From Bacilli bacterium (lineage in GTDB: Bacteria; Bacillota_I; Bacilli_A; RFN20; CAG-826), in contig JBGUOH010000009.1 in assembly GCA_045117995.1 (NCBI GenBank), positions 64,276 through 128,275 of the forward strand: a stretch of 64,000 nucleotides of DNA. The letters run 5' to 3'. The notes under the pieces were generated by a model. That model searched no databases, was not told the DNA's origin, and saw nothing but the letters and a program-made list of their open reading frames with translations. Within the stretch, counting starts at the first letter, position 1. Each line of letters opens with the position of its first letter. Shown here in pieces: positions 42,237-44,606 of the stretch. The position numbers were made by a program, and so were the translations under genes.

Positions 42237-44606
42237 TTAATAAGTGTTATCGGTGATATTAAATAATCTGCCAATTTCTGAAGAACCAACCAAAGGCATT
42301 AACGAACCATGGAATGTCTTTGTTTGGCCGCCATTGTTGCTTGTAATTGTTTGATATTGAGAGATACAAGCGTTTGTATAATGGAAATATTGTCTATACG
42401 TATAATTTGGTTCTACATAGTATGGAGACCATGAATATGTCGTTCTTCCACTCTTTGTTTCCGAGGTAACTTTAGCGTATCTTGGAAGTGACATTGTGCC
42501 ACCGTAATATCTGCAATAATATGCAGCGGTTTGTAACGATCCTAAGAACAAACAGAATTCTCCAACCGTTTTAAGTCTTGGGAACGAAGTATCAATGCCG
42601 TTAATCAATGTAGTTGCTAAACCAGCAGCATCTTTTATCAAAGAAGCGCCGGTTGCTGCATAGCTAACAAAAGGAATAAACCCGAGAATATCGTTGAAAA
42701 TTGAAACACCATATGAGGCTGTATCTTTGATGAATTGAACGCGCAATTCTTCATAGTGAGCTTGATCCTGCTCATCATAATTGTTGAGAACAATAGCGGC
42801 AAGTCCTTCCGCTATTTTTTCAATTTGGAAAAGAACCTCTTCATCCCAAACATACAAAATAGAATCAAGGTATACTTGATCGTTTTCTAAGAAATATGGA
42901 TCCAAATAGCCTTGCTTATCATTGCCTTTTACACTATATAGGAATTGAGAATCACCATCCCATCTATCATAAATTGAATCTGGTAATGCATCATTCTCCC
43001 ATACGCACATACTGTAGTGACGTTTCATACTTGGTTTTAGTAAGAATTTATCGTTTCTAACTTCTTTGCGGTGATAGTTAATTGTATAAAGATAGTTAGT
43101 AATATCATTCTTGTTATTGGCTGTGACATGAATATAATATGTGCCAAATGTTAAATGAAGATTTTTTGTAAGACTTCCCAGTTTGTTAAACACTACCACA
43201 GGGGTTTGTGAGCCTCTATCTTTCACAACTCTGAAACGATATGCACTGCTTGGTGATTGAAATTGGAAATAATAATCAGCTTCTTCAGTAACCGTTAGTC
43301 TATACCAGTCATTATCTATGAAAGTTAAAATTGATCCCAAAGAACCATATTCAAGTTTTCCTGTAATTTTGCCAGATTGTGTAACCGGTATGGCGTTTGC
43401 CATGGTATCTGAGCCTGCACGTTTCCAATAAGGAGTGCGTGTATCATCAGAATCCGTGAATTCTGAATAAGGAACAGGAGCGTTTTCGAAGGCTGAATCA
43501 TCGATATCATCATAATAATCATCATCTGGTTCAACACTTGGGCTAATGTTTGCTTGTCCAAGTTCTCTATCTGGAAAGTACTTATAGTTAATGGTGATAT
43601 AACCATCTAGATAGTCGTTATGAGTTTTAGCAAAAACAGCAAAAACACCACGGGTGCTGTCAAATGTCACATCGTATTCATAGAAGCCAGAACCGCTATT
43701 ATCTTCGCAATTGATATATTCCACAGTTGGCCAGTATATTGAATCAACGCCTTCAATCGCGACTTCTTGAGCACGGAGATAATAATAACCACCATCGACA
43801 TCGTTAAACTTTTTAATCTCCCACGAGTAATTCGCTTGTAAATCAACGCTTCCGACCACTACTCTCTCATATCGATAATACACGTCAATAACGCCATCTA
43901 AGTATTGATTGGTAGTTATAGCGTCAACTCGAATAATTCCCGTATTTTGATCAAAATCTACATCTACTCTGCTAAAGTCAGCACCACTATTGTCAACATA
44001 ACTTGTGACTTCTAAATAAGGCCAGTAAATTGGATCAACTCCAGAAATTTGAACTTCTTTAGTAAAGCCCCAAACGTTTTGATAAACGTGATGGAGTTCA
44101 CTTGTATAGTAGGCATCAACCGACATGGAACCATATAGCATTGTTGGATCTGTATATTGATAGTAAACATAAATAACGCCATCACAATAGTCGCCATAGC
44201 CTTCTGCGAGAACAACAAAAGTGCCCTTCATCGCATCAAACGTTACTTCCATTTCATCAAATCCAGCGCCACTATCATCAAAATAACCAGTGACTTCTAA
44301 ATAAGGCCAGTAAATTGGATCCACTACCGAAGCATATAATTGGTCTTCTTTGTAATATCTATATCTTGAGCCACTGATATTAAATAATTCGTAATAACTT
44401 GTACTTACCACAAAAGTACCAGTGTGCACGCCATTATTAGGCAAACTGCGTTTAGGAGTTAAACCTTTGTTTGTTTTTTCAAGATAATCGGTATTTCTTT
44501 CTTGAATTTGTTGCAAATTATTATCGCCTGACGCCATTATTTCTGGTGTCACGCCAATCGAGGATACTGCCGCTGCGGCAAGCATACTCAAAAGAATAAT
44601 ATTCAT
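42237..44606 (-). CDS. Secreted protein of unknown function, with three tandem ~95-aa repeats plus a PPC-like beta domain and a C-terminal ~330-aa domain
   Basis: 789 aa. Signal peptide MNIILLSMLAAAAVSSIGV. Repeats each carry [VG]DPIYWPYLEV..D[DN]SG[AS][GD]F...DG[VY]I.[VI].Y[QRK]Y. Then a DWYRLTVTEEADYYFQF segment like pre-peptidase C-terminal domains. The C-terminal region is Tyr/Ser-rich and unassigned. Confidence 0.6.
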   Translation of the reverse strand: MNIILLSMLAAAAVSSIGVTPEIMASGDNNLQQIQERNTDYLEKTNKGLTPKRSLPNNGVHTGTFVVSTSYYELFNISGSRYRYYKEDQLYASVVDPIYWPYLEVTGYFDDSGAGFDEMEVTFDAMKGTFVVLAEGYGDYCDGVIYVYYQYTDPTMLYGSMSVDAYYTSELHHVYQNVWGFTKEVQISGVDPIYWPYLEVTSYVDNSGADFSRVDVDFDQNTGIIRVDAITTNQYLDGVIDVYYRYERVVVGSVDLQANYSWEIKKFNDVDGGYYYLRAQEVAIEGVDSIYWPTVEYINCEDNSGSGFYEYDVTFDSTRGVFAVFAKTHNDYLDGYITINYKYFPDRELGQANISPSVEPDDDYYDDIDDSAFENAPVPYSEFTDSDDTRTPYWKRAGSDTMANAIPVTQSGKITGKLEYGSLGSILTFIDNDWYRLTVTEEADYYFQFQSPSSAYRFRVVKDRGSQTPVVVFNKLGSLTKNLHLTFGTYYIHVTANNKNDITNYLYTINYHRKEVRNDKFLLKPSMKRHYSMCVWENDALPDSIYDRWDGDSQFLYSVKGNDKQGYLDPYFLENDQVYLDSILYVWDEEVLFQIEKIAEGLAAIVLNNYDEQDQAHYEELRVQFIKDTASYGVSIFNDILGFIPFVSYAATGASLIKDAAGLATTLINGIDTSFPRLKTVGEFCLFLGSLQTAAYYCRYYGGTMSLPRYAKVTSETKSGRTTYSWSPYYVEPNYTYRQYFHYTNACISQYQTITSNNGGQTKTFHGSLMPLVGSSEIGRLFNITDNTY
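43450..44330 (-). repeat. Intragenic tandem repeat (three ~285-nt units) encoding the repeated ~95-aa domains
   Basis: Two units share an exact 32-nt stretch, gtgacttctaaataaggccagtaaattggatc, near 44010-44041 and 44289-44320. The third unit has diverged. Confidence 0.7.

Follow-up and report, generated by a model that had tools for sequence, protein, structure and literature searches.

Pre-peptidase C-terminal (PPC) domains (PF04151) usually accompany secreted hydrolases, and the toxins that insert into membranes and have a buried hydrophobic hairpin or tongue include pore-forming colicins and the ClyA/Hbl family. PPC domains have been described as collagen-binding modules (PMC6168687), and Clostridium perfringens enterotoxin (CPE) combines a receptor-binding C-domain with a pore-forming N-domain (PMC3153257). 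Together with the Big_3/Ig-like surface proteins of Firmicutes, these are the systems with which we compare a 789-aa protein (hereafter the target) encoded in a 64,000-nt stretch of a Bacilli bacterium genome (the window; positions 64,276 to 128,275 of contig JBGUOH010000009.1, assembly GCA_045117995.1). An earlier note, made from the sequence alone, had delineated this open reading frame (ORF) correctly; we add that it lies on the minus strand. The target is probably a Sec-exported, unanchored, modular extracellular protein that belongs to a small undescribed family, in which a PPC-like β-sandwich and a C-terminal domain (CTD) of unrecognised fold form the constant unit.

The PPC-like domain and the overall architecture, tandem sandwiches followed by a terminal functional domain, are already familiar. 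However, each of the described systems differs from the target in important respects. In collagenases, the PPC or collagen-binding domain (CBD) follows a peptidase, whereas in the target it is internal, precedes an unknown domain and falls below the Pfam threshold. Relative to CPE the domain order is reversed, and the CTD is unlike the aerolysin-like CPE N-domain, since only 101 residues of full-length CPE can be aligned and nothing aerolysin-like is found with Pfam. Tandem β-sandwich repeats of ~90-100 aa and an extracellular location are traits of Big_3/Ig-like surface proteins as well, but the repeats in the target form a separate sequence family and there is no LPXTG or other anchor. Finally, there is a possible analogy with the hairpin toxins in a positionally conserved but sequence-variable hydrophobic segment flanked by amphipathic helices and, in one subfamily, in a small membrane-protein gene directly downstream. 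Nevertheless, no similarity of fold or sequence to these toxins was detected, the segment in the target is less hydrophobic and contains charges, a β-sheet rather than a helical bundle forms the CTD core, and the target itself lacks the downstream gene.

A C-terminal domain of unrecognised fold

The C-terminal region had been described in the earlier note as ~330 aa long, rich in Tyr, Ser and Thr and devoid of recognisable motifs. It does lack a known family, but the domain spans ~275 aa and Tyr is not unusually abundant in it compared to the rest of the protein. Searches of Pfam, NCBIfam, PDB and BFVD, by sequence and by structure, returned no match, and thus no known enzyme either, an identity that the note had singled out for checking. 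No fold similarity to a known pore-forming domain was found. Since a whole-protein AlphaFold run with five sequences gave a predicted local distance difference test (pLDDT) score below 45 for the CTD, the PPC-like domain and CTD were modelled together (aa 400-789) from a 27-sequence alignment (A4), which gave a mean pLDDT of 83.9 and a predicted template modelling score of 0.85. In this model, a β-sheet core is built from strands at aa ~533-586 and ~704-772, which lie on either side of a helical insertion (aa ~589-700). The conserved motifs, i.e. WEND..P (536-542), GYLDP (566-570), YLDS..Y.W (579-587), LPRY (707-710) and FHG (765-767), are all located in the β-core. The CTD is therefore a domain family absent from Pfam and NCBIfam, with no structural neighbour detected.

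Conservation within the core is graded. W536, P708 and G767 are invariant in all 27 modules; conservation is at least 90% for G566, D569 and L580, and most modules share D539 and D581. Among the 11 closest subfamilies, the residues R548, D569, L580, D581, S582, Y585, W587, Y710 and H766 do not vary either, and N538 and D539 hardly do. Across the whole 27-member family, by contrast, H766 is replaced in 10 sequences, Ser582 in about one sixth, and the cysteines of the target are specific to its clade. Because of the replacement of H766 and the clade-specific cysteines, no universal catalytic set is evident, and the idea of a catalytic Cys/His site (C685, C698, H742 and H766 in the target clade) was abandoned on the same grounds.

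The helical insertion contains the most variable element of the domain (aa ~625-672). In every one of the 27 modules the most hydrophobic 19-residue stretch falls there (Kyte-Doolittle (KD) hydropathy of 0.83-1.99; 1.41 in the target), and column conservation in the alignment is at its lowest. AlphaFold is also least confident in this segment (pLDDT 51-74), which is modelled as a helix in one run and as strands in the other. Amphipathic helices flank it. Most of the 27 hydrophobic windows carry one or two charged residues and hence are not classical transmembrane (TM) anchors.

A PPC-like β-sandwich precedes the CTD

The segment preceding the CTD had been likened to PPC domains in the earlier note, which turns out to be correct by fold. 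This sandwich can be superimposed on solved PPC/CBD domains and has the fold of the receptor-binding β-sandwich of C-CPE. When the whole-protein model was compared with PDB using Foldseek, the matches were the enterotoxin C-domain, the CBD of ColG and PliG and, more loosely, tandem-sandwich proteins, among them Vip3 domains and lambda gpJ. At the sequence level the target fails the PF04151 gathering score, with no Pfam family matched even at E<=10. Yet, 5 of the 27 module relatives weakly match PF04151 (best E 2e-4), and it is on these matches and those of Foldseek that the assignment is based. The A2 family profile reaches PPC-annotated proteins, at low scores only. Family members hardly vary at the motifs D431-x-D433-W-Y and G-T489-Y490-Y, and an acidic linker precedes the domain. 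As regards a putative Ca2+-dependent binding of a ligand such as collagen, this linker and the conserved D431 and D433 are the features present. There is no peptidase domain in the target or the module relatives, in which the PPC-like domain is internal and followed by the CTD. A PDB match to a PA14 'antifreeze/adhesin' (E = 0.11) was taken as due to chance or to the GTY motif within the PPC-like domain.

Repeats and N-terminus

Upstream of the acidic linker are three tandem repeats of ~95 aa, as the earlier note had claimed. These can be aligned over 93-95 residues with pairwise identities of 37-45%, and each has a D[PS]IYWP motif (at residues 96, 191 and 288). AlphaFold with five sequences, a run that modelled the PPC-like sandwich as well, predicts seven strands and a short helix at DPIYWP, with pLDDT values of ~70-88. 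No Pfam family matches the repeats and, when their profile was compared by hhalign with Big_3 segments of relatives, the probability was 0.2%. The possibility that they are divergent copies of the PPC or Big_3 domains was ruled out by hhalign (probability <= 0.9%), and the best E value in a PDB profile search was only 0.25. The ~95-aa repeat is thus a β-sandwich family absent from Pfam and NCBIfam. Three copies are kept in all five alleles available, which answers a question about copy number raised in the note.

A signal peptide had also been proposed. The N-terminus, MNIILLSMLAAAAVSSIGVTPEIMAS, is indeed the most hydrophobic stretch of the target (KD 2.0), resembles a signal peptide and is nearly invariant across the five alleles, but has no basic residue. 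Most of the more distant relatives begin with MK followed by a hydrophobic run, whereas the target clade begins with MNIILLS and has no n-region Lys or Arg, a difference that, judging from these sequences, may affect export efficiency or route. The short linker that follows is by far less constrained: its aa identity between alleles is 27-82%, with ratios of non-synonymous to synonymous substitution rates (dN/dS) of 0.97 (against P0002) and 2.66 (against P0004), although with small n.

A small family without anchors

Searches with the whole protein matched nothing in Pfam or NCBIfam at E <= 10, nothing meaningful in PHROGs and nothing in PADLOC, and the best PDB sequence match was an antibody (E = 0.57). 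An indexed search of 5.8 billion proteins identified four homologues, all full length (788-795 aa), 96, 76, 74 and 58% identical to the target and free of Pfam domains. An exact copy of the target sequence occurs in an NCBI assembly, on a contig of 434 kb. No named homologue was found. When a profile built from the five sequences was run exhaustively against 1.84 billion cluster representatives, it matched 53 proteins at E <= 1e-3, nine of them at E <= 1e-30. In ~32 of these proteins there is a continuous unit equivalent to target aa ~400-785, i.e. the PPC-like domain and the CTD, always behind a signal-peptide-like N-terminus. The minimal members (483-543 aa) consist of the signal and this module only, others have 220-570 aa added after the module, and 5 of 10 individually scanned relatives have Big_3 repeats beside it. 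The target-type repeat occurs as one copy in nine relatives and as three copies in P0038. The lowest-scoring matches cover the β-sandwich alone and are PPC-annotated proteases or adhesins. This distribution of matches indicates that the PPC-like domain and CTD form the constant functional unit, to which the repeats are accessory.

The earlier note had called the target a candidate surface/adhesin or toxin-like module. The undescribed domains and the small family are in keeping with it, but the anchors expected of a surface protein are lacking. None of the matches has an LPXTG motif, according to a regular expression and a hydropathy scan (a check that the note had suggested), and Pfam reveals no cell-wall-binding domain. 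No complete-module protein has a C-terminal TM segment or a hydrophobic C-terminus, the latter being seen in P0054 and P0056 (weak or repeat-only matches), and a lipobox-like motif is present in two distant relatives only, not in the target.

In the P0023/P0057/L089 subfamily, found at three diverged loci, another gene starts 3 bp after the stop codon of the module gene; its product has two TM helices at the N-terminus and a small soluble domain. Two versions of this 2-TM protein (155-161 aa) are 44% identical and the L089 version has 315 aa. They start with M(E)KFNIK(K/R)(M/I)YG(Y/F)YWM, end with NPKVVV(L/F)Y and match nothing in Pfam or PADLOC. The 2-TM protein could be an immunity or docking partner of the module protein. 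Its gene is absent from the window and from the loci of P0011, P0017 and P0005. Separately, the C-terminal extension (aa ~500-560) of the 718-aa proteins of this subfamily (L089:406-2562) contains a CxC...CxxC cluster (...LFCDCGYQKLENH...YSCEYCEHKF...) with no Pfam match, which may represent a small element of zinc-ribbon type, here in an extracellular protein.

Alleles are mosaics under purifying selection

The five alleles (window, L088, L093, L094 and L095) share the downstream terminator and the tRNA-Val promoter region, with flanks that are 83-96% identical at the nt level. Within the gene, however, identity changes abruptly. Relative to P0002, the repeat block shows 65% nt identity and the PPC-like domain and CTD 89%, whereas relative to P0003 the repeats show 84%, the PPC-like domain 71% and the CTD 66%. 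By the maximum-chi-square method, breakpoints lie within the acidic linker (aa ~358, chi2 171; aa ~376, chi2 89). The alleles are recombinant mosaics in which the repeat block and the module are exchanged as separate cassettes at the acidic linker. The lowest nt identity (49-59% with P0003 and P0004) was found in windows spanning aa ~589-710. Despite this mosaic coding divergence, the signal peptide and the promoter/5′UTR are near-identical. Whole-gene dN/dS is 0.09-0.23, with dS up to >1, and approaches or exceeds 1 in the short N-terminal linker only, which shows that the gene is functional.

What might the protein do?

The reading that we place first, as a tentative possibility, is that the target is a released binding-plus-effector protein of a toxin- or bacteriocin-like kind. 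In such a scenario, the protein would leave the producer without a wall or lipid anchor, and its β-sandwich domains (the PPC-like domain and possibly the repeats) would recognise a surface ligand, a role that this fold has in clostridial collagenases and C. perfringens enterotoxin. The CTD would be the effector, acting through its positionally conserved, hypervariable hydrophobic helical segment, which would most likely engage a membrane. This reading is favoured because the minimal members are reduced to a binding-type sandwich and the CTD, because module-bearing members have no anchor of any kind, because the hydrophobic segment is conserved in position yet hypervariable in sequence, because an immunity-like membrane-protein gene lies directly downstream in one subfamily, and because members are rare and patchily distributed, with mosaic alleles.

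A cell-surface adhesin is a doubtful alternative that comes next in our ranking. The protein would be held by an uncleaved signal anchor, by a hydrophobic hairpin in the CTD or by a membrane partner, its PPC-like domain and repeats would bind plant fibre, host mucus or collagen-like ligands, or other microbes, and the CTD would be a non-catalytic binding or docking domain. The tandem β-sandwich repeats of the target and the Big_3 repeats of its relatives, a PPC/CBD fold known to bind ligands, the lack of a universally conserved set of catalytic residues and an allelic mosaicism typical of surface proteins are all in line with this, and the 2-TM partner could be the docking protein. However, module-bearing members have none of the usual anchors (LPXTG, C-terminal TM segment, lipobox or Pfam cell-wall-binding domain), and in many of them the hydrophobic segment does not qualify as a constitutive TM hairpin, being too weakly hydrophobic and too frequently charged. 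In addition, the minimal members have no stalk and the target has no partner gene.

A secreted enzyme of new fold is rather unlikely. Here, the CTD would be a hydrolase acting on polysaccharide, peptidoglycan or lipid, for example, its helical hydrophobic insert serving as a lid or flap and the PPC-like domain and repeats as substrate-targeting modules, as in collagenases. In its favour are the secreted hydrolases in whose company PPC domains are usually found, the set of polar residues that is invariant in the β-core of the 11 closest subfamilies (R548, D569, D581, S582, Y585, Y710 and H766), and the wider conservation of D569, L580, D539 and D581. No enzyme family is matched by sequence or structure, however, His766 is substituted in one third of the wider family and Ser582 in one sixth, and the conserved acidic residues could equally form a structural Ca2+ site.

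The most elaborate version of the toxin-like reading is unlikely as a whole. Under it, uncultured herbivore-gut Bacilli would have a new family of toxins or bacteriocins that are secreted and act on membranes, in which an enterotoxin/collagenase-type receptor-binding sandwich is joined to an effector of unseen fold that inserts a hypervariable hydrophobic hairpin into the membranes attacked, the downstream 2-TM protein of one subfamily is the immunity factor and alleles diversify by swapping modules at the acidic linker. That the ORF is spurious or decaying, as the absence of a named homologue and an unusual signal peptide with no basic residue might hint, is effectively refuted by purifying selection on five intact full-length alleles, and is further contradicted by the conserved promoter and ribosome-binding region, the confident AlphaFold model and the 53 remote relatives.

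Genomic setting and distribution

The earlier note's claim of an own promoter, terminators and adjacent tRNAs holds, the promoter resting on its match to the consensus (Table 1). The promoter stretch is near-identical in L088, an allele 60% identical to the target, where the upstream hairpin is conserved too. This hairpin and its U-run insulate the gene from the upstream PNPOx-like gene, and tRNA-Val, tRNA-Thr and tRNA-Leu follow the target on the same strand. The upstream neighbour varies, being the PNPOx-like gene in the window (44785-45174) and in L093 and tRNA-Ile(GAT) in L088 (8-84) and L095 (18-94), which in the latter two places the gene between tRNA-Ile and tRNA-Val, within a tRNA array. 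Conservation of the ~190 bp directly 5′ of the gene extends to both arrangements.

Table 1. Positions of the gene, its signals and its domains, in the window unless a locus is named
Feature	Coordinates	Strand	Details
Complete ORF, 789 codons plus stop	42237..44606	minus	ATG start; stop codon 42237-42239
Sigma-70-like promoter match TTGAAT-17-TACAAT	44662..44690	minus	consensus match only
Ribosome-binding site GAAAGGA	44618..44624	minus	11 nt 5′ of ATG, by reading the sequence
Signal-peptide-like N-terminus, aa 1-26	44529..44606	minus	possible cleavage IMA|S; KD hydropathy 2.0 over aa 1-19
Variable N-terminal linker, aa 27-59	44430..44528	minus	pLDDT 27-37
Repeat 1, aa 60-156, predicted β-sandwich with short helix at DPIYWP	44139..44429	minus	pLDDT ~78-88
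Repeat 2, aa 157-249	43860..44138	minus	alignment and AlphaFold model
Repeat 3, aa 250-345	43572..43859	minus	alignment and AlphaFold model
Acidic linker, predicted disordered, aa 346-405	43392..43571	minus	pLDDT 21-32; pI 4.05
PPC/CBD-type β-sandwich, aa 406-515	43062..43391	minus	motifs D431-x-D433-W-Y and G-T489-Y490-Y
C-terminal α/β domain, aa 516-789, unrecognised family and fold	42240..43061	minus	model pLDDT mostly 80-93
Hydrophobic, small-residue-rich, hypervariable CTD segment, aa ~625-672	42591..42734	minus	G-x-(I/F)-P turn
Two tandem hairpins 3′ of stop, U-run after the second (intrinsic terminator)	42168..42233	minus	minimum free energy -32.6 kcal/mol, z = -6.25
Hairpin and U-run	44732..44755	minus	terminates upstream PNPOx-like gene; z = -3.55; conserved in L088
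Downstream 2-TM gene	L001:10160-10627, L004:10133-10618, L089:2565-3512

Otherwise the surroundings are ordinary chromosomal genes (MnmG, Der, RNase Y, ABC transporters and glycoside hydrolases), the window has a GC content of 36% with no compositional anomaly at the gene, and there is no paralogue of the target within it. A genomic island at the tRNAs was ruled out, since the GC content matches the surroundings, no integrase lies nearby and the tRNA adjacency is clade-specific. The same goes for a phage origin (no meaningful PHROG match, no relatives on IMG/VR viral contigs, no convincing structural match in BFVD and ordinary neighbours) and for a defence system, PADLOC matching neither the target nor the 2-TM partner. 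A neighbouring gene (45237-46685, minus strand) encodes a 482-aa protein whose N-terminus is lipoprotein-like (...LVLAGCSS) and which has a class-3 lipase domain (PF01764). Upstream of this gene, positions 46892-48919 encode a histidine kinase of LytS type paired with a response regulator, and positions 49018-51324 an FtsX-type permease; a functional link of any of them to the target is not established. Elsewhere in the window, two adjacent large proteins of 935 and 702 aa (1277-6185, minus strand) each join an ABC ATPase domain to an FtsX-like permease C-terminal domain, in a MacB-like fused architecture. Two long TTG-start ORFs (30966-32882 and 32767-34755) overlap by ~115 nt on the plus strand, in a region where long ORFs otherwise lie almost exclusively on the minus strand.

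As for the organism, its MnmG is 96-97% identical to that of rumen metagenome-assembled genomes (MAGs) labelled uncultured Bacillales, Erysipelotrichaceae or Bacilli, and 70-92% identical to that of many ruminant, horse and reindeer gut MAGs. Where a source could be named, the family was found in uncultured low-GC gut Bacilli of herbivores. Close-family peptide patterns (A2) identified no relatives in 185,579 species-representative genomes, and 241 million JGI metagenome records yielded one locus. The relatives L087, L088 and L090-L096 are mostly on 2-4 kb contigs that offer no informative neighbouring genes and end within a few hundred bases of the gene, which suggests assembly breaks due to strain-level variation or to adjacent tRNA repeats.

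Significance

Secreted proteins that are uncharacterised abound in uncultured gut bacteria, and the target stands out among them by its confidently modelled orphan domain, its conserved hydrophobic element and its cassette-like recombination. The value of the finding is moderate until an activity is shown, the target being undescribed but not demonstrably extraordinary. Nevertheless, this work defines two new domain families, the repeat and the CTD, and shows clearly that alleles in a gut commensal recombine at the level of modules. If the CTD is a true new effector fold, the family would represent a new class of secreted binding-plus-effector proteins from poorly known, uncultured but abundant rumen bacteria, with possible roles in microbe-microbe or microbe-host antagonism and a module that might be re-targeted in the manner of the enterotoxin C-domain.

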